The notes: generated by a model from the sequence alone, not told the origin. Positions 17,993-40,726 are shown, counted from the first letter of the stretch. The stretch: 64,000 nucleotides of DNA from Actinomycetota bacterium (GCA_035536315.1 DATLOJ010000157.1:617-64616), one strand, 5' to 3'. Program-made: numbers and translations.

Positions 17993-19078
17993 CTACTGGA
18001 CCGGCGATCTCCGTGAATCCTGATTCAATCGCTGGAGAATTTGGGCTTCAGCGGCTAAGAACGCGCTGACCACATCAGGGTCGAACTGCGAACCCGAGTG
18101 ACGAGTGATCTCGTCCATTGCAACCTCCACCGGCAGTCCCTTGCGATATGGGCGGTCGCTTGTCATCGCATCGAACGCATCGGCTACTGCGAAGACGCGG
18201 GCTCCGACAGGGACGTCTTCCCCGGCGAGCCTGTTCGGGTAGCCTTCGCCGTCCCACCGCTCATGGTGAGCCATGACCACGTTGATCGCGTGCGGGTGCA
18301 GGAACCTGGCAGGTTCCAGAATCTTCGATCCCATGACCGGATGCTGCTTCATGATTGCCCACTCGCTCTCGTCAAGAGGCCCCGGCTTCATCAGGATCTG
18401 TTCTGGGATGCCGATCTTTCCAACATCGTGTAGCAGAAAGCCGAACACTATGGATTCCTCTTCCAGTAGCTCTGGAAGGAAGGATCTGGCGATAATCGTT
18501 GCGTAGTCTTGAACGCGTTTCGCATGGTTGCCCGTCTGGTCGTCCTTGGTCTCCAAGGCGGCGGCGAGCGACTGAACGGTGGATAGATAGCTTGTGTGCA
18601 GCTCTTCGGCCCTCTGTTCTGCATGCCGATAAAGTCGTCCCAGCTCCGTCATGACGGCCGACGTCAGGTCTCTGGATAGAACCGACTGCCCCTTTGCTGC
18701 CCATTGAAGTGCTTCGACGAAATCATCCGCGGCGATCCCCTTGAGCAGATATCCAAACGCGCCGGCAGCGATCATCTCGGTAATGAACTTTGGTTCTTCG
18801 TGGGTTGTCCAAGCGATGACTCGCATTTCCGGATAGCGGTCCGCAATAATCCTTGTGGCCATTATTCCGCTCAGGCCCGGCATGTCGACATCCATCAGTA
18901 CGAGGTTCGGCTGGCAAGTGCCGATCATCTCCAAAGCCTCCGGTCCTCCGGCGGCCTCGCCAACTAGCTCGAAGTCGGGGTGTGGTTCAAGGATCTCGCG
19001 CACAAGAACGCGGAACTGCGGGACATCGTCCACGACCAGCACTCGAACTTTGACAGGACTCTGTTCAGGCAAGACCAT
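17993..19078 (-). CDS. response regulator with receiver and HD-GYP phosphodiesterase domains (RpfG-like)
   Basis: REC domain (VLVVDD, phospho-acceptor context LVLMDVDMPG) followed by an HD-GYP domain (HDVGK...HHERWDGEGYP). Confidence 0.85.
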   Translation of the reverse strand: MVLPEQSPVKVRVLVVDDVPQFRVLVREILEPHPDFELVGEAAGGPEALEMIGTCQPNLVLMDVDMPGLSGIMATRIIADRYPEMRVIAWTTHEEPKFITEMIAAGAFGYLLKGIAADDFVEALQWAAKGQSVLSRDLTSAVMTELGRLYRHAEQRAEELHTSYLSTVQSLAAALETKDDQTGNHAKRVQDYATIIARSFLPELLEEESIVFGFLLHDVGKIGIPEQILMKPGPLDESEWAIMKQHPVMGSKILEPARFLHPHAINVVMAHHERWDGEGYPNRLAGEDVPVGARVFAVADAFDAMTSDRPYRKGLPVEVAMDEITRHSGSQFDPDVVSAFLAAEAQILQRLNQDSRRSPVQ

Positions 19079-31191: not shown

Positions 31192-31328
31192 GGCCCGGGC
31201 GGGCGCAGGCGCTCAAGCATGTCCACTGCCCTGCCGAAAATGAAACAAACCGGTCGCCTCGTCCTAGACTTGGAGCGGCGCAATCGTCACGCCCGAAGGC
31301 CTGACCAGATTCGTAGGAGGTAGCAACC

Positions 31329-31865
31329 ATGTCGATAACAAGAGCCGACGGATTGGCGCTAACGCTCGAAGAGTTCCTGAGACAGTGCCCAGACGTGGAT
31401 GCCGCAGCCGTTATTAGCTCTGACGGCCTGCCAATGGCATCGGCCCTACCCAGCCACATCCATGAGGATCGCTTGGGGGCGATGGCCGCAGCCATGCTTT
31501 CCCTGGGCGACCGGGCTGCCGAAACTTTGGGCCGCGGGCGTCTGAAGCAAGTATTTGTCGAGGGTTCAAATGGGTACGTCTTCCTGATGGCGGCGGGGCC
31601 GGCGGTCTTGTGTGCAATCACTCAGAAGAAGGCCAAGATCGGTTTGGTGATTTACGAGATGCAAACGACGGCATCCGTAGTAGGCAACATCCTCATGGAA
31701 GGGGAGGTGCGTGCCGTGCAGACAAACGCCGCCCCCGTCTCGCCGGCGCCACAGCCCGCTGCGGTCGAGGCGTCCCCGGTCGTGCCCGAGCCCAGAGCGG
31801 AGGCTTCGTCGAAGCCGGCAGATCTGCCCGCCGGCGTCACCTGGGACGACTACCAGGAGAGTTGA
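31329..31865 (+). CDS. Roadblock/LC7 (MglB/CvnB-like) domain protein
   Basis: About 120-aa Roadblock/LC7 core (AAAVISSDGLPMAS....GAMAAAMLSLGDRAAE...GYVFLMAAGP) followed by a Pro/Ala-rich tail. AGGAGG ribosome-binding site 10 nt upstream. Confidence 0.75.
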   Translation: MSITRADGLALTLEEFLRQCPDVDAAAVISSDGLPMASALPSHIHEDRLGAMAAAMLSLGDRAAETLGRGRLKQVFVEGSNGYVFLMAAGPAVLCAITQKKAKIGLVIYEMQTTASVVGNILMEGEVRAVQTNAAPVSPAPQPAAVEASPVVPEPRAEASSKPADLPAGVTWDDYQES

Positions 31866-31925
31866 GGCCAACAAGTGGACCTTAAGCGAATTATGCGTCG
31901 ACCTACTTCTGCGGAGGCCCACTAG

Positions 31926-32858
31926 ATGACCGCGCTCTCAGGATCGCTCGACGTTTTTGCCCTCCCGGACGTCTTGCGTCTGGTGGCTCAAAACAGGGTG
32001 ACCGGCGCGCTTCACGTTAACCGGGATAGCGGCGACGGCGTAATCTATTTCACCAACGGAACCGTTCAATTTGCCGACTCATCCCTGACGCACGACTTGC
32101 TCGGCCAGCGGCTCGTCGGTGCAAAGGTTCTCTCACAGAATCAGCTTCTCAAGGTCCTCGACGAACAAAAGCGCAGCGGGGGAGCCTTGCACGAGCTTCT
32201 CATCGAGAAGAAGTTGCTGAACGACGAAACTCTGAACGCCCATCTCAGGGAGCAGGCCGAGGAGGCGATCTATTCCCTCCTGCAGTGGGACGTTGGTAGC
32301 TTCAACGTCGAGCCCGGAGAGGAGCTCGAGCAGGACATTGGAATGGCCGTTTCGGTGGACAACCTGCTTATGGAATCCTCGAGGAGGCTGGAAGAGTGGG
32401 AGGTCATTCGCCGAAAGATTCCAGCTGTGGAGGCTGTCGTCGTGATGGCCGCAGACCCCCCCGACGAGTCTTCCGACATCAACATCAAACCGGATGAGTG
32501 GAAGCTGCTCGTAATCGTCGACGGCTCACGCTCGGTCAGGGATATCTCGCTCGCAGCCGGCCGGTCCGAGTTCGACACGTGCAAGGTTCTGTACGGACTT
32601 GTGACCGCGGGTCTGGTCAAGGTCATCGGCGATTACGCCCCCGCTGAAGAGGAGCCGTCCAAAGAGGAGAAAGATCCGGCCCCCGTGAAGCCCGACGAAC
32701 GCCGTTCGGAACGGCGGGTAGCCGCCCCGAACGGGAAGCCAACGCGCGCGGCCGAGCCCGTACAGGAATCCGACGAGGGAGCCGAAGCAGCTCATGCGGA
32801 AGCATCAATTTCCAAGGAGGTACTGCAGCGCCTGATTGCAGGCGTGAGGGACCTGTAA
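31926..32858 (+). CDS. PATAN/DUF4388 domain protein
   Basis: N-terminal G.LDVFALPDVLRLVAQNRVTGALHV...GVIYFTNGTVQFAD and C-terminal DEWKLLVIVDGSRSVRDISLAAGRSEFDTCKVLYGLVTAGLV halves match the DUF4388/PATAN pattern. An acidic low-complexity tail follows. Confidence 0.7.
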   Translation: MTALSGSLDVFALPDVLRLVAQNRVTGALHVNRDSGDGVIYFTNGTVQFADSSLTHDLLGQRLVGAKVLSQNQLLKVLDEQKRSGGALHELLIEKKLLNDETLNAHLREQAEEAIYSLLQWDVGSFNVEPGEELEQDIGMAVSVDNLLMESSRRLEEWEVIRRKIPAVEAVVVMAADPPDESSDINIKPDEWKLLVIVDGSRSVRDISLAAGRSEFDTCKVLYGLVTAGLVKVIGDYAPAEEEPSKEEKDPAPVKPDERRSERRVAAPNGKPTRAAEPVQESDEGAEAAHAEASISKEVLQRLIAGVRDL

Positions 32859-32862
32859 GCCT

Positions 32863-33411
32863 TTGGCCACCGTCAAGGTGGTCGTTACCGGTCCGTTCGC
32901 AGCCGGGAAGACGACCTTCATTCGAACCGTATCCGAGATCGCGGTCATCTCTACCGAGCGCAATGTCACGGATCACAGCGCCGAGAAAAAGGGAAGAACC
33001 ACGGTGGCGATGGACTTCGGAAGAATCACTATCGATGAGTCGCTGGTCCTTTATCTATTCGGAACCCCCGGCCAGGAGAGGTTCGATTTTATGTGGGAGA
33101 TCTTGTCCGAGGGCATGCTTGGGTTCATCCTGCTGCTGGACCCGGTGGACAAGGAATCCTTTGAGGATGCGCGGAAAATATTGAACGCCTTTCTGGGGTA
33201 CGGGGATGTTCCTTTTGTCGTCGCCGTCAACAAGCATGACGACGACGAAGCTGGTGCGGCGATTGCCCGGGCCGAGTTGGCTCTTGCGGACTCAGTACCC
33301 ATCGTCCCGGTGGACGCGCGCGACCTCGAGAGCGTCAAAGGGGTCCTGCTCGAGCTGCTGTTGTTGGTTGTGAAGACAAGGGAAAATCAGCAGGTTCTGA
33401 GTCCCGGCTAA
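32863..33411 (+). CDS. small Ras-like GTPase, MglA/CvnD-like (ATP/GTP-binding protein family)
   Basis: G1 GPFAAGKTT, G3 LFGTPGQERF and G4 NKHD motifs. Strong similarity to the Streptomyces conservon CvnD core (TTVAMDFGRIT..LVLYLFGTPGQ.RF.FMW). TTG start. Confidence 0.8.
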   Translation: MATVKVVVTGPFAAGKTTFIRTVSEIAVISTERNVTDHSAEKKGRTTVAMDFGRITIDESLVLYLFGTPGQERFDFMWEILSEGMLGFILLLDPVDKESFEDARKILNAFLGYGDVPFVVAVNKHDDDEAGAAIARAELALADSVPIVPVDARDLESVKGVLLELLLLVVKTRENQQVLSPG

Positions 33412-33413
33412 AT

Positions 33414-33665
33414 ATGGGTTTCTTCAGCCGCCTCTTTCGAGGAAAGAAAAAGAACAGAGCCCCCGGCTGGAATTGGGCCCTGGGTTCGGGGGTTCACCTT
33501 GCTCCGCCTCCACCGCCACCCCTGAAAGCCGACGACAACGACACCGACTGGCCCGCAGGGCGGGTCGTTTTGGGGTTTGAGAACGGGACCCTTCATTCCC
33601 TCGAGGAAAGCAACAGGCTCGTTGCCGATTTTGTGAAGGCAGCAGATCGAATATTCAGCCCGTAA
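33414..33665 (+). CDS. hypothetical small protein (basic N-terminus, poly-Pro, acidic C-terminus)
   Basis: 83-aa ORF starting 3 nt after the GTPase stop (MGFFSRLFRGKKKNR...PPPPPP...). No recognisable family; ribosome-binding site is weak. Confidence 0.35.
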   Translation: MGFFSRLFRGKKKNRAPGWNWALGSGVHLAPPPPPPLKADDNDTDWPAGRVVLGFENGTLHSLEESNRLVADFVKAADRIFSP

Positions 33666-33722: not shown

Positions 33723-35405
33723 GTGAACGAACAAGCAAACCGAGGATTCGGCGACCTCCTTCTAGACGAGGGACTCATCTCGGGCGACCACCTTGGCGAG
33801 GCCGAAGAGGAGGCCAGGTCCACAGGCAAGTCCCTCGGCAGGGTTCTGATCGACAAGGGATTCATCACCGAGGCCCAGGTCTTTGCCGTTCTGGCGAGAG
33901 CCACAGGCTTTGAATTCGTTGAACTCGCGGAAATCACCATCGATCCGACCGCCACCACCTTGATTCCTGAGAGTCAGGCGCGGCGCTACAAGGCGCTTCC
34001 TATCGGCTTCGACAACGGCAAGCTCGTTGTGGCAATGGACGACCCCAACAACGTCTTTGCCATAGACGACATCCGCACGATGACCGGTAAAGAGATCAAG
34101 CCAGTAGTTGCCACGGGCCAGGACATCCTGGCGGCCATAGGGCGGATGCAGCGCCTGGACACATCTGTCGAAGCGATGGGCGATGGTGGCGGGGACTTTC
34201 TCCTGGACGATGAGGAGATCGGTGGGAGCGCAGAGGATGGGGGAGACGCACCGGTCGTCCGCCTGGTGAACCAGGTCATCACCCAGTCCGTAAATGACAG
34301 GGCTTCCGACATCCACTTCGAGCCGCAGGAGCGGGACCTGCGGGTGCGTCAAAGGATCGATGGAGTTCTCCACGAGCTCGGTCGCTTTCCGCGTAACATC
34401 CAGGCCGGGGTCGTCTCGCGACTCAAGATCATGGCCGACATCGACATCGCAGAGCGGCGGATCCCTCAGGACGGCCGCATCAGCCTGTCCGTCCAGGGAA
34501 AGTCGATCGACCTGCGAGTGGCAACGCTGCCGACTGTTTACGGAGAAAAAATCGTTCTCAGGATTCTGGATAAGTCGAGCGTTTTGCTGAAGCTGGAGGA
34601 CCTCGGGTTTTCGCAGCACAACTTCAGGCTCTACGAGGGCGCGTACACCAAGCCCTACGGAATGATCCTCGTCACAGGTCCAACTGGCTCCGGAAAATCC
34701 ACGACGCTTTACGCCACCCTCAACATCCTTAATCAGGAGGATAGGAACATCATCACGGTAGAAGACCCGGTTGAATACAGACTCGCCGGGATCAACCAGA
34801 TCCAGACGAACCCGAAGGCCGGCCTAACGTTCTCGTCTGCTCTGAGATCGATCTTGCGTGCGGACCCGGACACCGTCCTGATCGGTGAGATCAGGGACAA
34901 GGAGACGGCCCAGATTGCGGTCGAGGCCGCTCTTACCGGCCACCTCGTTCTTTCGACGCTGCACACCAACGATGCACCCGGCGCCGTCAGCCGTCTGATT
35001 GAAATGGGAATCGAGCCCTTTCTGGTTGCATCGGCTGTCGATGCCGTCCTTGCCCAAAGACTTGCCCGCCGGTTGTGTGAGAAATGTAAGGACGCATATA
35101 CGCCAACGCGTGAGGCTCTGAAGGAAAACAAATTCCATATTGGCGAAGACGAGGAGATTCCTACGCTGTTTCGTCCAAAAGGCTGTCCCAAGTGCAGCAA
35201 GACCGGGTACAGAGGCCGGATGGCGGTCCACGAGGTAATGCCTATGTCGGAAGACCTCGAAATGCTAACGGTGGAAAGAAAGTCGAGTGACGAGATCCGC
35301 CGGCTTGCTATTCAGCAGGGGATGATCGATCTGCGCGGAGACGGTATGCACAAAGTCCGTCTGGGACATACCTCTCTGGAGGAAATTCAAAGAGTCATCA
35401 TCTGA
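33723..35405 (+). CDS. pilB: type IV pilus assembly ATPase PilB (GspE family)
   Basis: GSPII_E N domain, Walker A GPTGSGKST, Asp/His boxes, and tetracysteine Zn motif (CEKC...CPKC). Confidence 0.93.
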   Translation: MNEQANRGFGDLLLDEGLISGDHLGEAEEEARSTGKSLGRVLIDKGFITEAQVFAVLARATGFEFVELAEITIDPTATTLIPESQARRYKALPIGFDNGKLVVAMDDPNNVFAIDDIRTMTGKEIKPVVATGQDILAAIGRMQRLDTSVEAMGDGGGDFLLDDEEIGGSAEDGGDAPVVRLVNQVITQSVNDRASDIHFEPQERDLRVRQRIDGVLHELGRFPRNIQAGVVSRLKIMADIDIAERRIPQDGRISLSVQGKSIDLRVATLPTVYGEKIVLRILDKSSVLLKLEDLGFSQHNFRLYEGAYTKPYGMILVTGPTGSGKSTTLYATLNILNQEDRNIITVEDPVEYRLAGINQIQTNPKAGLTFSSALRSILRADPDTVLIGEIRDKETAQIAVEAALTGHLVLSTLHTNDAPGAVSRLIEMGIEPFLVASAVDAVLAQRLARRLCEKCKDAYTPTREALKENKFHIGEDEEIPTLFRPKGCPKCSKTGYRGRMAVHEVMPMSEDLEMLTVERKSSDEIRRLAIQQGMIDLRGDGMHKVRLGHTSLEEIQRVII

Positions 35406-35434: not shown

Positions 35435-36553
35435 ATGCCCGCTCTGGAACACAACATGAGCACCGAACCCGCCCAGCCCGCCCACGTCCCCGACGCGCGC
35501 ATGATTTCTCTTCTCGAGGAGGTGGTCAGCCGCAAGGGGAGTGACCTGCACCTGACGCCTGGAATTCCTCCGGTGGTTCGCGTCCATGGGCGTCTTGTCC
35601 GACTTCAGGAGAGTGGACCCCTTGAGACCACGGAGCTGAGGTCGATGCTTTATTCAATTCTCAGCCAGCGCCAGATCGACACATTCGAAGAGGAGCTGGA
35701 GCTGGACTTTTCATTCTCGCTCCCAGGGAAAGCCAGGTTCAGGGCCAACGTCTTTTACCAGCGCGACTCGGTTGGGGGGGCCTTCAGGCTCATCCCTGCC
35801 GAGATCAAAAGCATTCAGGAGCTAGGGCTTCCGTCCCAAATCGCCGACTTTACGGAGATGAACCGAGGTCTTGTCTTAGTGACTGGGCCGACGGGCCAGG
35901 GAAAAACGACAACCCTTGCAACCATGATCGGCATGATCAATCAAAACAGAGATACGCACATTGTCACGATCGAGGACCCCATCGAGTTTGTGCACGACCA
36001 CAAGATGTCGGTCGTGAATCAAAGAGAGGTAGGCACCGACACCCATTCGTTTTCAGAGGCGTTGCGACGTGCCCTGAGACAGGACCCCGACGTGATCCTG
36101 GTGGGAGAGATGCGAGATCTCGAAACCATCTCAACTGCACTGACCGCGGCGGAGACCGGCCACCTGGTGTTTGCGACCCTGCACACCCAGGACGCGGCAC
36201 AGACCGTCGACCGAGTTATTGACGTCTTTCCGCCCCAACAACAGGAGCAGGTGCGAGTGCAGCTGGCCGGAAGCCTCCAGGGAGTAGTCGTGCAGTACCT
36301 GCTTCCATTGACGCAAGGAGGGGGCCGCGTGCCGGCGGTGGAGATTATGTTTGCTACCCCCGCCATCCGTAACCTCATCAGGGAAGGCAAGAGTCACCAG
36401 ATCAACTCCGCGCTCCAGGCAGGGGGGCGCCATGGGATGCAGACGATGGATCAGGCGCTGGCCGATCTGTACCGGAGCCGCAAGATCTCGTTCGAGACGG
36501 CCATGGAACGGGCCTCGGATTCTGAAACCCTGAAGCAGCTTCTGGGCAAGTAA
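35435..36553 (+). CDS. pilT: twitching-motility retraction ATPase PilT
   Basis: GPTGQGKTTT Walker A and the PilT-specific AIRNLIREGK motif; 372 aa. Confidence 0.93.
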   Translation: MPALEHNMSTEPAQPAHVPDARMISLLEEVVSRKGSDLHLTPGIPPVVRVHGRLVRLQESGPLETTELRSMLYSILSQRQIDTFEEELELDFSFSLPGKARFRANVFYQRDSVGGAFRLIPAEIKSIQELGLPSQIADFTEMNRGLVLVTGPTGQGKTTTLATMIGMINQNRDTHIVTIEDPIEFVHDHKMSVVNQREVGTDTHSFSEALRRALRQDPDVILVGEMRDLETISTALTAAETGHLVFATLHTQDAAQTVDRVIDVFPPQQQEQVRVQLAGSLQGVVVQYLLPLTQGGGRVPAVEIMFATPAIRNLIREGKSHQINSALQAGGRHGMQTMDQALADLYRSRKISFETAMERASDSETLKQLLGK

Positions 36554-36561
36554 TTCCCGCC

Positions 36562-37353
36562 GTGCCCCTCGAGTCGGTGGCGATCGCAGCAGCGACTTTC
36601 ATCTGCGGCGCTGTATTCGGAAGCTTTGCCAATGTCGTAATACACAGGCTCCCTCGAGGGGAACCGCTGGCCAGGCCTCCGTCAAGATGTCCCGGCTGCG
36701 GCAAGAATCTCAAGTGGTGGGAAAACGTTCCGCTCGCTTCTTACCTCGCGTTACGAGGCCGCTGCTCCGCTTGCGGCGTGCGGATCTCGCTGCGCTATCC
36801 GCTCGTTGAGGCCCTGTGCGGTGGTCTCTGGGCTTTGACCGCGATCACGATCGGCCTGACCCCATACCTCGCGGCCCTTCTGGCCATGGCCACTACGCTC
36901 ACAATCCTTACCTTCATCGATCTCGAGCATCGACGACTGCCAAACAAGGTTCTCGGCCCCGCATCGATAATCGCCGTTGCCTGCCTCCTCGTTGCCTCAC
37001 TTGTCACTGGGGAGCCTTCCAGGCTTCTTGATGCGGCTATTGGGGCCGCGGCGTACGGGGGGCCGTTGTTTTTACTCGCTCTGGCCGTTCCGAGGGGAAT
37101 GGGGGGAGGGGACGTAAAGCTTGGCGCTTACATTGGGCTGAATTTAGCCTGGGGCTCGCTGGGAAACGTGGCCGTTGCGGCCTTTGTGGCCGTCCTTGCT
37201 GGGGGAGTTGTCTCCTTGATCCTTATGGCGTCCGGGACCCGGGGCCGCAAGGACGCGATCCCGTTCGGGCCCTTCATGGCGCTTGGCGCCGTCGTCGGCG
37301 CCCTTTGGGGCCCACGTCTGCTGGACATCTGGCTGGCGACCGCCGGCTTCTAA
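36562..37353 (+). CDS. pilD: prepilin peptidase (A24 family) PilD
   Basis: N-terminal CPGCG...CSACG Zn-binding pair, several transmembrane segments, and catalytic Asp context (GGGDVKL). Confidence 0.9.
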   Translation: MPLESVAIAAATFICGAVFGSFANVVIHRLPRGEPLARPPSRCPGCGKNLKWWENVPLASYLALRGRCSACGVRISLRYPLVEALCGGLWALTAITIGLTPYLAALLAMATTLTILTFIDLEHRRLPNKVLGPASIIAVACLLVASLVTGEPSRLLDAAIGAAAYGGPLFLLALAVPRGMGGGDVKLGAYIGLNLAWGSLGNVAVAAFVAVLAGGVVSLILMASGTRGRKDAIPFGPFMALGAVVGALWGPRLLDIWLATAGF

Positions 37354-37474: not shown

Positions 37475-37503
37475 TTGACTGCCTGTGTGACTCTTGTTAG
37501 CTT
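37475..37503 (+). promoter_or_regulatory. sigma-70-like promoter candidate for the HTH–pilMNO transcript
   Basis: TTGACT, then a 17-nt spacer, then TAGCTT. A second TTGACT lies at 37383. An ACCCCA/TGGGGT hairpin (37453–37472) sits just upstream. Confidence 0.4.
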
Positions 37504-37565
37504 CCGTAAACCCCTGTGGCGCATCGTCACCGGGCGGAGCTGAGAACGGGAGCGCGAAGTTGAGC

Positions 37566-37775
37566 ATGGAGGCTGGGATTCGTCCCGTCCGGGTCAATGG
37601 TGACGTTCTGCTGACTGTGGCGGAAGTGGCCTCACTGATGCGCGTCTCGAACATGACGGTTTACAGGCTCATCAAGTCCGAGCAACTAAAGGCCTTGAAG
37701 GTCGGCAAGAACTACCGAATCAGGGAGTCGGACATCGAGACATATCTCAACGACCGCTCAGTGGGGGGACCGTAA
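37566..37775 (+). CDS. small HTH DNA-binding protein (excisionase/MerR-like, BldC-like architecture)
   Basis: LLTVAEVASLMRVSNMTVYRLIKSEQLKALKVGKNYRIRESDIETYL matches an HTH_17/Xis-type domain. The stop overlaps the pilM start as TAATG. The upstream portion of the longer ORF (from 37494) has no ribosome-binding site. Confidence 0.65.
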   Translation: MEAGIRPVRVNGDVLLTVAEVASLMRVSNMTVYRLIKSEQLKALKVGKNYRIRESDIETYLNDRSVGGP

Positions 37776-38872
37776 TGGCTCGGGCCAAGGACTCAGTTGG
37801 ACTTGATATCGGAACGAGCGGCGTAAGGGCTGCTCACCTCTCGTTCGGCCGGGTTCCTTACTCCCTCCAAAATTTCGGCCAGGTTGCCCTGCCTCCGGGG
37901 GCCGTCCGAGAAGGTGAGATCGCGGACTCGGCGACCGTGGCGCAGGCGCTCAGCGAGCTTTGGAAGCGGGGAGCTATCAAGAAGAAGACGGTCAGCCTTG
38001 GAATATCAAACGGCCGGGTCGTGGCTCGGCCAATTCAGTTTCCCGCAATGACCGAGGACGAACTTCGAAACGCGCTCCAGTTTCAGGCTCAGGAGTACAT
38101 CCCATTTCCAGTTGAAGACGCGGTGGTCGACTTTCAAATCGTCGATGAGTTCGTCGGCGACAACAACGAGAGAGTAATGCAGATATATCTGGTGGCCGGC
38201 CACAAGGAAATGATCAGCACGTTCGTCGAGACGATCGAGCGAGCGGGGCTGAGGCTCGATTCAATTGACTTCATTCCTATGGGGCTCATTCGATCCCTGG
38301 GAGAAACGGCCGATTCCATGGAGCGAAGGGCCGGCGTCGGAGAGGCCATCATCGACATCGGTGCGGGAGTCACGAACGTCGTCGTTCACGAGGGGGGAAT
38401 CCCTCGCTTTGCGCGCGTGCTGGCCACCGGAGGACACGCTCTGACCGACGCACTCTCTGCCGGAATGGGAATTCCCTTTGAGGAGGCGGAGGCAATCAAG
38501 CAGCGCCTCGGCCTTCGCCCACCTGGTCCCGCTGCAGAAGTCCCGGGGGCCCAGGGAGACGATCTTGCAATCCAAATCCTCGAAAATCGGGCGGGAGCGT
38601 TCGTGGATGAAGTTCGCGGCTCCATCGATTACTTTCTGGCCCAGCCCGAGTCCATCCAGATCTCGAGACTCGTGCTCAGCGGAGGGGGATCGAAGCTAGT
38701 CAACTTGGGCGCCCGTCTGTCCGCAGGACTGCGAGGCCTCCCGGTAGAGCAGGGGAGAGCGCTTCAGCGCATCACCGTCCAGAAGTTTGGTTTGACCGAT
38801 GAACAAATTGGTGAGGCCGAGCCCCTTATGGGAGCTTCCGTTGGCGTTGCCCTGGGGGCCGCATGGCAGTAA
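37775..38872 (+). CDS. pilM: type IV pilus assembly protein PilM (actin-like ATPase)
   Basis: VGLDIGTSGVRAA N-terminus and the FtsA/actin fold pattern; 365 aa. Confidence 0.9.
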   Translation: MARAKDSVGLDIGTSGVRAAHLSFGRVPYSLQNFGQVALPPGAVREGEIADSATVAQALSELWKRGAIKKKTVSLGISNGRVVARPIQFPAMTEDELRNALQFQAQEYIPFPVEDAVVDFQIVDEFVGDNNERVMQIYLVAGHKEMISTFVETIERAGLRLDSIDFIPMGLIRSLGETADSMERRAGVGEAIIDIGAGVTNVVVHEGGIPRFARVLATGGHALTDALSAGMGIPFEEAEAIKQRLGLRPPGPAAEVPGAQGDDLAIQILENRAGAFVDEVRGSIDYFLAQPESIQISRLVLSGGGSKLVNLGARLSAGLRGLPVEQGRALQRITVQKFGLTDEQIGEAEPLMGASVGVALGAAWQ

Positions 38873-39510
38873 GACGAATAAACCTCCTTCCCCCAGAGAT
38901 TGCAGTCAGAAGGCGCGTCCAGCGCCAGACGTTCGGACTGGGCGCGGGTTTCCTCGTCCTGCTTTTGATCCTTGGAGCCATCTGGGTCTTCAGGCAAGGC
39001 CAGCTTCACGACCAGGAGGATCGCAAGGCAGTCGCGGAAGCAGAGGCGAGGTCATTGCAAACCAAAGTAGACGCCCTTGCCGAGTTCAGCGAGCTAGACA
39101 AAACAGTGAAGGACAAGAAGGCAACACTCGCTGCTGCCATGGCCGGCGACGTTGCTTGGTCGCGTTTGATGGTCGAGCTCTCGATGATCATTCCCGGCGA
39201 CAGCTGGCTTCTGTCGATGGCCGGGACGTCAGCACCTCCGACTGCCCCCGCTGCGGGAGCGGCCCCAGCGCCGGCAGGAGCTCAAGCCGCATCGCTTGGA
39301 ACTCTCAACTTCACAGCAGTCACGTTCGACTTTCCGGGCGTTGCCAAATGGATCACGAGGCTCCAGGAGCTCCCCAGTCTTCAGACGATCTGGGTTCCCT
39401 CTGCATCGACGGCCCTCATCGGTGAGCGCGACGTCGTCAACTATTCGAGTACCGCTGAACTGTCGAGCGACTCGGCCAGCGGGAGATACCAGCCGGCGGC
39501 CGCGCGATGA
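38863..39510 (+). CDS. pilN: type IV pilus assembly protein PilN
   Basis: INLLP motif, a single transmembrane helix and a coiled-coil region. Confidence 0.85.
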   Translation: MAVRRINLLPPEIAVRRRVQRQTFGLGAGFLVLLLILGAIWVFRQGQLHDQEDRKAVAEAEARSLQTKVDALAEFSELDKTVKDKKATLAAAMAGDVAWSRLMVELSMIIPGDSWLLSMAGTSAPPTAPAAGAAPAPAGAQAASLGTLNFTAVTFDFPGVAKWITRLQELPSLQTIWVPSASTALIGERDVVNYSSTAELSSDSASGRYQPAAAR

Positions 39511-40094
39511 GACGAAATTTCTTGATATTCGTGCTGGTGGTGATAGTCACCGCGGTTCTGTACTTCTTCTTCGTGTTCAGCCCGCAGAGCGAGCGGATCA
39601 AAGAGGCGTCGGAATCTGCGGACGCTGCTGAGACCAAGGTGAGCAGGCTCACGCTCGAGCTAAGGCGGCTACAGGCGCTGCAGAAGGATGCGCCCCGCCT
39701 TCGTCAGGAGGCGCAGGTCCTGGATAGCGCGATGCCGAACGATCCACAGCTTGCTCAGTTTCTCTTGATGGTTCAGGAGCAGGCCGATGCTTCGGGCATC
39801 GATTGGACTTCGGTCAACCCCGCGCCCCCCATCGCCGGGCCGCAGCCGAACGTGAGCGAGATCACGATCGCGCTGAACGTCAGTGGAGGGTACTTCCAGG
39901 TCCAGGACTTCCTCGTAAGGCTCGAGACCCTTTCACGCGCTCTGAAGATCGACACCCTGAGTCTGACCCCGCTTCCTGCGACGGAAGGTGCCTCAGCTGG
40001 AGGTTCGCCGGAGCTGATTACCAGCCTCACCATGAAGATGTTCGTCTCGTCGATTTCAGCCGCGCCGGCAACAACGGCCGCAGCGGGAACTTAG
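39507..40094 (+). CDS. pilO: type IV pilus assembly protein PilO
   Basis: Transmembrane helix, coiled-coil and PilO C-domain; ATGA overlap with pilN. Confidence 0.8.
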   Translation: MRRNFLIFVLVVIVTAVLYFFFVFSPQSERIKEASESADAAETKVSRLTLELRRLQALQKDAPRLRQEAQVLDSAMPNDPQLAQFLLMVQEQADASGIDWTSVNPAPPIAGPQPNVSEITIALNVSGGYFQVQDFLVRLETLSRALKIDTLSLTPLPATEGASAGGSPELITSLTMKMFVSSISAAPATTAAAGT

Positions 40095-40108
40095 ACAAGG
40101 AGCTTTTG

Positions 40109-40726
40109 GTGGCAACCGAAGAAGCAGTAGTCGAAGAGAGACAAGGCCTGAACCCGGCGGTAGTTGCCGCGCTCGTCGTGGGCGGGCTTTTGCTTCTCGG
40201 ACTCTTCTTCTGGTTTGTCGCCAGACCATTCCTGTTTCCCCAGCCTGCTGAAGAGCCACGCGTGCCTGCCCCGAAGAGGCAGGCCGTGAACCCCAGTCCC
40301 AGCCCGGCAGCGGCCGCGGAGCAGCCTCCAGCAGAGACCTTCGAGGTCTTTGAATCGAAGGATCCATTCCGTCCCCTTGTCGTCGTGCCCGTAGCTGCGG
40401 GGGCCGGAAGCGGTTCTACGACATCAGGTGCAACCGGTGGAGGTACAACTGGGACCACAACCGGTGGGAACACGCCCGCCGCAGGGAACGGTGCTGCGGG
40501 GGGAGCCGCGCCAACGGGCGGACAGCGGGTCAGTCTGATCGATGTGTTCACCGACGACGGCACTAAGAAAGCTCAGATCAAGGTCGGGAGCACGGTCTAC
40601 ACGGTCGCGGTCGGCGAGACGTTCGCCCAGAACTACAAGCTCGTTTCCGTATCGGGGGACTGCGCGACGCTGCTGCACGGAGACAACAAGTTCACCCTCT
40701 GCGAGGGCGAAGAGGTAATTAAGTAG
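40109..40726 (+). CDS. membrane-anchored hypothetical protein, possible PilP-like T4P accessory component
   Basis: GTG start 6 nt after an AAGGAG ribosome-binding site. It has one transmembrane helix, a Pro/Ala-rich linker, a Gly/Thr-rich low-complexity linker, and a C-terminal beta-rich domain of about 70 aa. It lies directly after pilO. Confidence 0.5.
   Translation: MATEEAVVEERQGLNPAVVAALVVGGLLLLGLFFWFVARPFLFPQPAEEPRVPAPKRQAVNPSPSPAAAAEQPPAETFEVFESKDPFRPLVVVPVAAGAGSGSTTSGATGGGTTGTTTGGNTPAAGNGAAGGAAPTGGQRVSLIDVFTDDGTKKAQIKVGSTVYTVAVGETFAQNYKLVSVSGDCATLLHGDNKFTLCEGEEVIK

Follow-up and report, generated by a model that had tools for sequence, protein, structure and literature searches.

Results

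Genes and features at the locus

The window, i.e. the whole stretch of 64,000 nucleotides from an Actinomycetota bacterium that was analyzed here, contains four consecutive genes for a Roadblock/LC7 protein, a PATAN (DUF4388) protein, a small GTPase of the Ras superfamily and a protein of 83 amino acids (aa), which are followed by type IV pilus (T4P) genes (Table 1). All four open reading frames that had been claimed in an earlier note on this DNA were found on the plus strand at the coordinates given there, and Pfam profile searches bore out its three family assignments (Robl_LC7, DUF4388/PATAN and ATP_bind_1).

Table 1 Features of the GTPase module and the adjoining pilus genes, with coordinates counted from the first nucleotide of the window.
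Feature	Coordinates	Strand	Evidence
aroE-Robl spacer, 137 nt	31192..31328	+	sequence read
Robl / PATAN / GTPase / 83-aa ORF block	31329-33665	+	open reading frames
Roadblock/LC7 (MglB/CvnB-like) protein, 178 aa	31329..31865	+	Pfam PF03259 Robl_LC7, E=2.8e-18, 65.9 bits (cutoff 23)
PATAN adaptor protein, 310 aa	31926..32858	+	Pfam PF14332 DUF4388, E=4.9e-30, 104.5 bits (cutoff 25), residues 5-159
Alpha-clip insertion, residues 57-120, four-helix MshEN/PilB N-terminal-like fold	32094..32285	+	
Winged-helix domain, residues 186-236, CvnC/DUF742-like	32481..32633	+	
Conserved C-terminal amphipathic helix ISKEVLQRLIAGVRDL	32805..32855	+	family alignment A1
Small Ras-superfamily GTPase, MglA family group 2-5 type, 182 aa	32863..33411	+	Pfam ATP_bind_1 E=1.6e-18, Ras E=1.8e-8; TIGR00231 42.1 bits
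83-aa protein, fourth module gene	33414..33665	+	positional homologues; GC3 0.64
PilB-type extension ATPase with MshEN N-terminal domain	33723..35405	+	PF00437 7e-141, PF05157 6e-23, TIGR02538 646 bits, NF053729 51.7 bits
PilT-type retraction ATPase	35435..36553	+	TIGR01420 487.7 bits (cutoff 319.1)
Prepilin peptidase PilD	36562..37353	+	PF06750 5e-33, PF01478 4e-14
Small HTH_17 DNA-binding protein, immediately 5' of pilM, boundary common	37494..37775	+	PF12728 2e-15
pilM	37775-38872	+	PilM_2 2.6e-40
pilN	38863-39510	+	position/synteny, 62% identity to L011; no Pfam match
pilO	39507-40094	+	PilO 1.2e-10

The genes are arranged in the order Robl-PATAN-GTPase-83-aa ORF-pilB-pilT-pilD-(HTH)-pilM-pilN-pilO with an operon-like spacing, the gaps amounting to 60 nt between the Roadblock and PATAN genes, 4 nt between the PATAN and GTPase genes, 2 nt between the GTPase gene and the 83-aa ORF, 57 nt between the latter and pilB, 29 nt between pilB and pilT and 8 nt between pilT and pilD; no convincing terminator was found between these genes. 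Upstream of the module lie alaS, ruvX, mltG and aroE, and the pil genes are followed by aroC-aroK-aroB. The spacer between aroE and the Roadblock gene ends with a strong Shine-Dalgarno sequence (AGGAGG), which is located 7 nt before the ATG, and from its sequence it is likely to represent the putative promoter site of the module; a scan of these 137 nt for the sigma-70 consensus detected no promoter. The window is found, in identical form, in the public record "MAG TPA: Actinomycetota bacterium", to which the proteins HVE77152.1 and HVE77153.1 belong.

The type IVa machinery in the window includes PilB, PilT, PilD, PilM, PilN and PilO, with pilN being assigned by position and synteny only. A tblastn search for PilC or a pilin across the 64-kb window gave no match; in three relatives (L001, L003 and L005), pilC and pilin genes are located between pilT and pilD. 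The respective genes may be located elsewhere in the genome, and since none lies within the 64 kb, a functional pilus of this organism is only predicted. The HTH_17 protein is 76-81% identical to proteins at the same position in L001, L011 and L013, and its true start is probably located downstream of position 37494, because relatives encode about 67 aa.

The 83-aa ORF had been regarded as an orphan, but it turned out to be a member of a conserved family with positional homologues in most of the related loci. We defined this family by position and a common three-part layout, which begins with a basic amphipathic helix at the N-terminus (GFFSRLFRGKKK), continues with a poly-Pro spacer and closes with a beta/alpha module at the C-terminus (RVVLGFENGTLHSL...FVKAADRIF), and which recurs at 14 related loci; a homologue is absent from L009, L013 and L032. 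Neither Pfam nor NCBIfam gave a match for the ORF and four of its positional homologues.

The Roadblock protein and the GTPase

The Robl domain spans residues 12-120 of the Roadblock protein, which includes an Asp-Gly pair (SSDGLP), and is followed by a Pro/Ala-rich tail with a Trp motif (VTW). Most orthologues end in [VI][ST]xW[QEH], preceded by a variable linker. Among PDB sequences, the protein matched 7f8m (4.9e-19), Rv3364c/MfpD (6.6e-12) and CvnB5 (7e-12). Its gene is located 1 kb upstream of the GTPase gene in the same orientation, and a Roadblock gene was found at 26 of the 32 testable loci.

Indeed, the GTPase carries the motifs that the earlier note had quoted (G1 GPFAAGKTT, G3 FGTPGQ and G4 NKHD). 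The P-loop GPFAAGKT (residues 10-17) fits GxxxxGK[ST], G3 comprises residues 66-71, G2 reads RTTVAMDFG with T46-T47, and G5 is DAR. According to an alignment with CvnD and references of groups 3 and 5, these motifs agree with MglA groups 2-5 as defined in PMC4316618, and since GTPGQ is combined with Thr-Thr in G2, the protein has no intrinsic arginine finger. The description of the GTPase as near-identical to MglA was thus mistaken: the features of group 1 MglA/SofG, i.e. an arginine finger beside the G2 Thr and TVPGQ, are lacking, and a phmmer comparison with MglA of Thermus thermophilus (3t12) reached only E=2.8e-4. In a neighbor-joining (NJ) tree, which was built with few references, only two of them from group 5, and without the Acidothermus sequence, the module GTPases formed one clade (84% bootstrap) that was sister to CvnD (87%), while a grouping with the Thermus/Deinococcus group 5 proteins obtained only 9%.

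Architecture of the PATAN protein

In the PATAN protein, a PATAN core carrying the alpha-clip insertion is followed by a winged helix, from which a disordered acidic/Pro linker leads to a conserved C-terminal helix. In an AF2 model (pLDDT 78), the insertion is helical at residues 59-119 and residues 237-293 are disordered. The alpha-clip consists of four helices from two tandem 24-residue repeats, as in the MshEN fold.

The C-terminal helix, in which L303, I304, G306, V307 and L310 are invariant in alignment A1, is carried by at least 98 of the 150 top-ranking cluster representatives. It is coupled to the GTPase gene, being found in all 25 PATAN proteins whose gene is followed by one and in none of the five others (Fisher p=7e-6). 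Based on the sequence, it is probably the element that engages the GTPase.

This helix (ISKEVLQRLIAGVRDL) corresponds to the C-terminus of CvnC, LLExVLxGLRxL. When the disordered linker was deleted in silico to test the collinearity of the terminal helix, hhalign aligned the PATAN tail with CvnC end-to-end (probability 89-94%, P ~2e-7), with scores of 39-44 compared to a maximum of 15-19 for shuffled columns; with the natural long linker kept, only the winged helix was aligned (P=0.004). When ORFs were ranked with a CvnC HMM, the PATAN ORFs in their natural full length came out ahead of about 6,660 decoys from the same loci. However, the similarity is in part a generic winged-helix likeness and lies below Pfam significance, the tail reaching E=0.017-0.09 with DUF742 and at best 15.4 bits, on the linker-deleted construct, against a cutoff of 27. 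A search with a Streptomyces CvnC protein returned only orthologues with 84-97% identity and thus did not add depth to the DUF742 profile. The statement that DUF742 is absent and replaced by PATAN is too simple: the PATAN protein resembles CvnC in its C-terminal half, and its gene occupies the position of cvnC.

Conservation of the gene neighborhood

Co-occurrence with pilB and pilT in relatives, a test that had been set beforehand, was strongly borne out. Among the related loci that contain the GTPase gene and at least 4.5 kb of downstream sequence, pilB adjoins the module in 19 out of 20. Coriobacteriia, Nitriliruptorales and Gaiellaceae are among the Actinomycetota MAGs from which these loci stem, and the order Robl-PATAN-GTPase-(small)-pilB-pilT recurs where the proteins are only 40-65% identical to those of the window. 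The three best GTPase homologues that were checked all sit in the same module. In relatives, the genes called upstream are alaS-RuvX-YceG-aroE; in L001 the surroundings differ and yebC precedes the module. In L008, a locus from the Coriobacteriia, a pilB gene is located on each side of the module and PilT is not encoded beside it. L010 keeps the module with no pil genes downstream, and L035 shows PATAN-pilB-pilT-pilC without Roadblock or GTPase, so that the GTPase is dispensable for the link between PATAN and the pilus in at least one lineage.

No CvnA kinase adjoins the module, in line with what the note had claimed; aroE is located upstream of the Roadblock gene, also in relatives. Canonical cvnA or cvnC genes just beyond the module were rejected, since the 8 kb on each side contain only housekeeping and pil genes. 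DUF4388 homologues from Acidobacteriota and Planctomycetota were likewise rejected as the same module because no GTPase, Roadblock or pil gene is nearby and the terminal helix is missing, and the same applies to the actinobacterial paralogues L033, L036 and L039.

Discussion

Proposed function and alternatives

By its gene order, the module belongs to the MglB>PATAN>MglA class ("MglA group 5"), and within the Actinomycetota it is probably closest to the CvnB-CvnC-CvnD core, in a kinase-free form. With respect to its function, we favor, with modest confidence, a four-gene small-GTPase switch in a deep-branching actinobacterium, which is co-transcribed with the T4P motor and acts on it. The GTPase would cycle between GTP and GDP with the catalytic Gln in GTPGQ and without an intrinsic arginine finger, and the Roadblock dimer would accelerate GTP hydrolysis, similar to MglB and MfpD. 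The PATAN protein could engage the GTPase through its winged helix and its invariant C-terminal helix, like CvnC/MfpC, acting either as exchange factor or as effector handle; MfpD (CvnB) is a GAP and MfpC (CvnC) a GEF for MfpB (PMC13343842, PMC13015309). The PATAN domain, with its alpha-clip resembling the PilB N-terminus, may bind PilB and/or PilC at their N-terminal region, as in cyanobacteria, where the PATAN domain of PixE was shown by experiment to bind the N-terminal domains of PilB1 and PilC (bioRxiv 10.1101/2021.06.11.447907). If this is the case, the nucleotide state would decide if the extension motor engages the pilus platform, or at which place. Finally, the 83-aa protein might tether the complex to the membrane through its basic amphipathic helix. 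All contacts between the proteins, their roles as GAP and GEF and the kind of output, be it polarity or on/off gating, are inferred by analogy with these systems.

It could also be c-di-GMP, bound by the MshEN-like alpha-clip, which decides on PilB engagement, with the GTPase only modulating or localizing this step. In many PATAN family members motif II agrees with the relaxed MshEN pattern, and in six loci both motifs do so; in addition, the PATAN-GTPase pair of Thermus brockianus is flanked by EAL, HD-GYP and GAF genes, and the window itself encodes an intact REC-HD-GYP phosphodiesterase (17993-19078). However, both 24-residue motifs of the window protein are degenerate (motif I: Leu at position 1, Gly10 to Lys; motif II: RLG to ALH, Gly10 to Lys), its NF053729 score of 37.7 is under the cutoff of 38, the family consensus of motif I lacks the Arg, the N-terminus of the window PilB fails the relaxed c-di-GMP pattern too, and a literature search gave no PATAN alpha-clip demonstrated to bind c-di-GMP. 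As both of its motifs fail, we rejected the window PATAN protein as a c-di-GMP receptor, and we regard a c-di-GMP-driven decision as unlikely.

Equally improbable in our view is a polarity oscillator as in Myxococcus, in which the GTP-bound GTPase would mark the piliated pole and the Roadblock protein the opposite one, and PilB and PilT would be sorted between poles rather than gated. There is precedent in Myxococcus and Thermus, where MglA and MglB set T4P polarity, and in SofG, which sorts PilB and PilT (PMC4316618); both ATPases are encoded immediately downstream of the module, and the terminal Trp motif of the Roadblock protein and the amphipathic helix of the 83-aa protein are possible localization determinants. 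The GTPase, however, is not of group 1, as judged from the missing arginine finger and GTPGQ instead of TVPGQ, and no RomR/RomX, SgmX or Frz-like genes were found in the window region examined around the module. Moreover, since Coriobacteriia carry two PilB and no PilT beside the module, sorting of PilB and PilT cannot be its general function.

Very unlikely is a conservon-like regulator of development, envelope or metabolism, with a transcriptional output via the PATAN winged helix or HTH_17 and a merely historical adjacency to pil genes: it would fit the sister position of the GTPases to CvnD, given that conservons control development, antibiotic production and gyrase rather than pili (PMC4316618, PMC13343842), the winged helix as such, the arrangement in L010 and the original prediction of PATAN as DNA-binding, against which the authors of bioRxiv 10.1101/2021.06.11.447907 argued, but it is contradicted by the persistence of pilB next to divergent modules with differing flanks, the insertion between two pilB paralogues in Coriobacteriia, a predicted recognition helix (FDTCKVLYGLVTAG) nearly without basic residues and the PilB/PilC-binding output that the same study established for PATAN by experiment.

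MglA group 5/PATAN triads and conservons are widespread G-protein systems with largely obscure outputs, and the near-obligatory link to pilB and pilT offers a first concrete and testable output for the triad class, namely the pilus extension motor. The locus also provides a rationale for how PATAN couples upstream signals to PilB/PilC outside cyanobacteria, and for the little-studied T4P of deep-branching Actinomycetota (Coriobacteriia, Nitriliruptoria, Thermoleophilia-like) it supplies a set of regulator plus machine. The short C-terminal helix of the PATAN protein, as a probable GTPase-binding element, also matters for the Mfp and Cvn systems, which are tractable.

To our knowledge, CvnC has so far been seen as an invention of actinobacteria only. 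The CvnC-like tail suggests a hint at the origin of the conservon GEF, and we tentatively put forward, as a possible but doubtful scenario, that the pilus-linked module is sister or ancestral to the conservon, that CvnC derived from the winged-helix and terminal-helix tail of the PATAN adaptor, and that the GTPase directly gates PilB via the alpha-clip as a mimic of the PilB N-terminus, in which case the module would represent a kinase-free G-protein switch hard-wired to T4P in monoderm bacteria.

Comparison with known systems

The association of PATAN with MglB was reportedly first noted by Makarova et al. in 2006. MglB>PATAN>MglA triads from Aquificae and Chloroflexi have been listed under MglA Group 5, and the same list includes one actinobacterium, Acidothermus cellulolyticus with Acel_1323 (Wuichet & Sogaard-Andersen 2014, Table S2); the view that actinobacterial Roadblock-GTPase pairs occur only in conservons, as stated in the earlier note, is thus wrong. 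The window shares the three families and their order with these triads, along with GTPGQ in G3, a G2 with Thr where group 1 has the Arg finger, and an NKxD G4, with NKHD fitting [NT]KxD. In Thermus and Deinococcus, too, the PATAN partners of group 5 contain a winged helix and end in an amphipathic helix. In contrast, the window-type GTPases group with CvnD and not with Thermus/Deinococcus group 5 in the NJ tree with its two group 5 references, and they carry the DAR G5 that was ascribed to groups 2 and 3 (Wuichet & Sogaard-Andersen 2014). A fourth conserved gene and the near-obligatory pilB-pilT link, neither of which is mentioned by these authors, further distinguish the module; group 5 neighborhoods were described to "vary widely" (Wuichet & Sogaard-Andersen 2014), and the PATAN-GTPase pairs of Thermus and Deinococcus do not adjoin pil genes.

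Conservons (AGPS; CvnA-D, Mfp) are actinobacterial and show the identical order of Roadblock protein, middle protein and GTPase. The window Roadblock protein reaches about 1e-11 with CvnB5 and MfpD, and in the profile-profile comparison the winged helix and C-terminal helix of the middle protein align with CvnC. In contrast to the conservon, the module is without a CvnA histidine kinase; the window GTPase has NKHD and no insertion, where CvnD has NxFD in G4 and about 11 additional residues between G1 and G2, and only the DAR G5 is common to both. Compared to CvnC, the middle protein adds the N-terminal PATAN domain with the alpha-clip and a long disordered linker, and it misses the DUF742 threshold. 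The genomic partners are P450, GAF or MfpA accessory genes in conservons and the pilus motor in the window.

The group 1 MglA-MglB systems of Myxococcus and Thermus resemble the window in combining a Ras-like GTPase and a Roadblock protein with a functional tie to the T4P ATPases, and two PATAN proteins were among the candidates in a study of MglA-dependent T4aP regulation in M. xanthus (PMC11580455). They differ in that MglA has an intrinsic arginine finger and TVPGQ, where the window GTPase has Thr-Thr and GTPGQ, and in that MglA and MglB are not encoded with pilB/pilT but act with RomR/RomX and SgmX as partners.

The MshEN c-di-GMP receptor domains of MshE, PilB and PilF are located N-terminal to the ATPase and display a ligand-contacting pattern of Arg, Gly and Gln, whereas the alpha-clip sits inside another domain and the window PATAN protein lacks this pattern. 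The PATAN domain with its alpha-clip insertion is shared with the cyanobacterial PatA-type regulators (PATAN-REC: PixE, PixG, LsiR); there, however, a chemotaxis-like system provides the input through a phosphorylatable REC domain, while in the window this place is taken by a CvnC-like winged helix and helix, coupled to a small GTPase.

Gene content of the module and its surroundings

The four ORFs that the earlier note had read from the sequence as a Roadblock, a PATAN, a GTPase and an orphan gene are present as described, and three of them were placed by Pfam in the corresponding families (see the table). The window has a GC content of about 0.60 and is identical in sequence to a public Actinomycetota MAG that includes the proteins HVE77152.1 and HVE77153.1. 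Within the block running from the Roadblock gene, which is preceded by a strong Shine-Dalgarno sequence, through pilD, successive spacers measure 60, 4, 2, 57, 29 and 8 nt, and no convincing terminator was found inside it. Neither a histidine kinase nor a stand-alone DUF742 gene was found near the module. No pilC or pilin gene was found across the entire 64-kb window, from which it follows that the platform and pilin genes are located elsewhere or lost.

Features of the locus, in window coordinates
Feature	Position	Strand	Assignment or remark
REC-HD-GYP response regulator gene	17993-19078	-	between secDF and relA
Conserved housekeeping backbone around the module		+	hisS, aspS, rarA, alaS, ruvX, mltG, aroE, module, pil genes, aroC, aroK, aroB
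Roadblock gene	31329-31865	+	Pfam Robl_LC7, E=2.8e-18
PATAN gene	31926-32858	+	Pfam DUF4388/PATAN, E=4.9e-30
GTPase gene	32863-33411	+	Pfam ATP_bind_1, 1.6e-18; Ras, 1.8e-8
Fourth module gene (83-aa ORF)	33414-33665	+	
pilB	starts 33723	+	MshEN N-terminal domain
pilT	starts 35435	+	
pilD	starts 36562	+	next downstream, small HTH_17 gene
HTH_17 gene	37494-37775	+	between pilD and pilM; stop overlaps pilM start
pilM, pilN, pilO			3' of the HTH_17 gene
Membrane-anchored Gly/Thr-rich protein gene	40097-40726	+	after pilO

Conservation of the module and its linkage to pil genes

The arrangement is strongly conserved. Scanning a single genome for each GTDB species returned 31 further loci, almost all of them from Actinomycetota MAGs, and the window proteins were mapped onto all loci, with counts restricted to those that were testable. 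The Roadblock protein was found in 26 of 32 testable loci and the GTPase in 23 of 29. The association with a type IV pilus motor proposed in the earlier note proved robust: pilB lies within 5 kb in 19 of the 20 loci in which the GTPase is present and the downstream sequence extends for at least 4.5 kb. PATAN orthologues with 45-59% identity occur in the same block of Roadblock, PATAN, GTPase, small ORF, pilB and pilT, which in one locus (L001) is preceded by yebC instead of aroE. The best three GTPase homologues examined, from a Coriobacteriia contig, a Nitriliruptorales MAG and another Actinomycetota MAG (59-64% identity), all lie inside the same module.

There are exceptions: one locus (L010) has kept the module and is missing the pil genes, another (L035) reads aroE-PATAN-pilB-pilT-pilC without Roadblock or GTPase, a third (L013) has only a Roadblock remnant, and several PATAN paralogues are located elsewhere. 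An exhaustive phmmer search with the PATAN protein returned 314 cluster representatives (clustering at 50% identity) with E<=1e-30, rising to 4,491 with E<=1e-10; the family is therefore not rare. At a Coriobacteriia locus (L008, 1728-9277), the module sits between two PilB paralogues and PilT is missing; its PATAN protein is 583 aa long, and the place of the fourth gene is taken by one whose 312-aa product has a transmembrane helix at its N-terminus and contains Pro-Glu repeats.

The GTPase is of the MglA group 2-5 type

The GTPase has a complete set of motifs (G1 GPFAAGKT, G2 Thr-Thr, G3 GTPGQ, G4 NKHD, G5 DAR). MglA groups 2-5 are defined by GTPGQ and by a Thr replacing the intrinsic arginine finger (PMC4316618). 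The MglA proteins of Myxococcus and Thermus belong to group 1, whereas the window GTPase is not of this type, and its match to T. thermophilus MglA at only E=2.8e-4 is consistent with a position outside group 1. Compared with Streptomyces CvnD, taken from conservons on five Streptomyces plasmids, it is 35-44% identical and shares the DAR motif, but the CvnD insertion of about 11 residues that separates G1 from G2 is absent, and its G4 reads NKHD in place of NxFD. In a neighbour-joining tree, the module GTPases form a clade (84% bootstrap) that is sister to CvnD (87%), and this grouping is apart from the group 5 proteins of Thermus and Deinococcus. Because reference sampling was thin, we take the tree as an indication that CvnD may be the sister group.

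The PATAN protein carries an MshEN-like insertion

Based on the family alignment and an AF2 model (pLDDT 78), the PATAN protein consists of five parts: a beta/alpha PATAN core; a four-helix insertion (residues 57-120), known as the 'alpha-clip' (Makarova et al. 2006); a winged helix (residues 186-236); a disordered acidic/Pro linker whose length varies widely; and an invariant C-terminal helix, [ST]KxxLxRLIxGV[KR]xL. The alpha-clip sequence matches the N-termini of PilB and MshE (1.7e-9 and 1.8e-7, respectively). Neither repeat of the window PATAN protein matches the relaxed MshEN ligand motif (PMC5013675), and the window PilB likewise fails it; many PATAN orthologues match in repeat II, and in six loci both repeats match. 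Given the failure of the motif in the window protein, c-di-GMP binding by it appears unlikely.

The REC-HD-GYP response regulator encoded in the window has intact HD and HHERWDGEGYP motifs and is probably a c-di-GMP phosphodiesterase, which implies that the organism has c-di-GMP signalling despite the degenerate-looking MshEN-like motifs of its PATAN and PilB proteins. On the Thermus brockianus plasmid pTbrSNM4-1b (L043, 5348-6519), a PATAN gene and a GTPase gene, paired but lacking a Roadblock gene, lie amid c-di-GMP turnover genes (GAF-domain protein, protoglobin, EAL, HD-GYP), a hint that some group 5 PATAN/GTPase systems could be wired to c-di-GMP signalling and not directly to pil genes.

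The PATAN tail is probably related to CvnC

In conservons, CvnC (DUF742) occupies the same slot between the Roadblock and GTPase genes as the PATAN gene, and in it, too, a winged helix precedes a C-terminal helix (LLExVLxGLRxL). Pfam DUF742 matched the PATAN tail below significance, at best with E=0.017 for a linker-deleted construct. When a profile of 27 PATAN tails with the linker deleted was compared with a profile of 8 CvnC sequences, the probability was 89-94% (P ~2e-7), in an alignment spanning the winged-helix start to the final residue of both, and the score of 39-44 compares with 15-19 at most in 150 column shuffles. Against a background of some 6,660 ORFs, taken in six frames from every locus, CvnC proteins came first after self-hits with the PATAN-tail HMM, and PATAN proteins, natural full-length ORFs among them, were top-ranked with the CvnC HMM. 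The terminal helix is present in 25 of 25 PATAN genes directly preceding a GTPase gene vs 0 of 5 others (Fisher p=7e-6, computed without allowing for phylogeny). Since generic similarity between winged helices accounts for some of the signal, we regard the relationship as probable, not proven.

Upstream of a group 3 GTPase on the Ralstonia solanacearum megaplasmid (L049, 3611-3985), a gene encodes the 'DUF' protein of group 3 MglA systems, which also looks like a winged helix with a short amphipathic C-terminal helix (…SLITRLWSRLS…); from this layout, group 2-5 GTPases may all share a CvnC-like adaptor as partner.

Roadblock protein and fourth gene

The Asp-Gly pair that is characteristic of MglB partners in groups 2-5 is present in the Roadblock protein, which matches CvnB5 and MfpD at ~1e-11. 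It shares with most of its orthologues a Pro-rich tail containing a Trp motif; in most orthologues the motif is terminal ([VI][ST]xW[QEH]). The 83-aa ORF, without a match in Pfam and NCBIfam, belongs to a positionally conserved family, whose members have a basic amphipathic helix at the N-terminus (GFFSRLFRGKKK), linked by a poly-proline spacer to a C-terminal module with the pattern VxLxFxDGS...DP...F/Y[LV]xxA. In three loci (L020, L023, L030), the small ORF between the GTPase gene and pilB encodes this module tandemly duplicated in one polypeptide (VxLxFxDGS…Y[LV]xxN[LI]L). PATAN paralogues without an adjacent GTPase often terminate in a GFFGRFRK-type motif, much like the helix of the fourth protein, and we speculate that the two might share a role such as membrane tethering.

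The downstream pil cluster

The HTH_17 gene encodes a DNA-binding protein of the MerR/excisionase type, BldC-like in size, which is the best conserved at the locus (76-81% identity in L001, L011 and L013, compared with 50-70% for pil proteins) and may regulate transcription of the pilMNO portion of the cluster. Directly after pilT follows pilD in the window (36553-37353) as in L011, L013 and L032; in other relatives this interval is occupied by pilC and one or two pilin genes, in some cases with a Wzy_C gene as well (compared: L001 15158-19856, L003 14961-17341, L005 15079-19470). The product of the gene after pilO has a single transmembrane helix and a long low-complexity stretch rich in Gly, Thr and Ala, and its C-terminal beta-rich domain looks conserved (…RVSLIDVFTDDGTKKAQIKVGSTVYTVAVGETF…). 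It had no credible match in Pfam; in a monoderm type IV pilus it could be a PilP-like or a pilus-associated component.

Proposed mechanism and comparison with known systems

Most likely, the module is a kinase-free G-protein switch. We infer contacts in which the Roadblock protein would act as GAP for the GTPase, the PATAN tail would engage the GTPase as a GEF-like element, and the PATAN adaptor would couple its nucleotide state to the extension motor. In mycobacteria, the CvnD homologue MfpB has MfpD (CvnB) as GAP and MfpC (CvnC) as GEF (PMC13343842, PMC13015309), and in cyanobacterial regulators PATAN domains bind the N-terminal domains of PilB1 and PilC (bioRxiv 10.1101/2021.06.11.447907).

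According to citing papers, an association of PATAN with MglB was noted in 2006. In Table S2 of Wuichet & Sogaard-Andersen 2014 (PMC4316618), MglB>PATAN>MglA recurs as a neighbourhood of 'MglA Group 5', with triads listed in Aquificae, Roseiflexus and one actinobacterium (Acidothermus cellulolyticus, Acel_1323); the main text describes group 5 members as just 'occasionally' near PATAN genes. The module belongs to a class that is already catalogued, though uncharacterised, and is not a new kind of system. In the full-text literature covered, which lay largely outside subscription journals, we found no link between the triad and type IV pili in Actinomycetota, no experimental characterisation of a group 5 triad and no paper relating CvnC to PATAN proteins. 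What is new compared with these systems is that the triad is near-obligatorily fused into an operon with pilB-pilT across deep Actinomycetota, that it comes with a fourth gene, that the alpha-clip has the MshEN fold but a decayed ligand motif, and that the tail is probably CvnC-like, with a terminal helix that tracks the presence of the GTPase gene.
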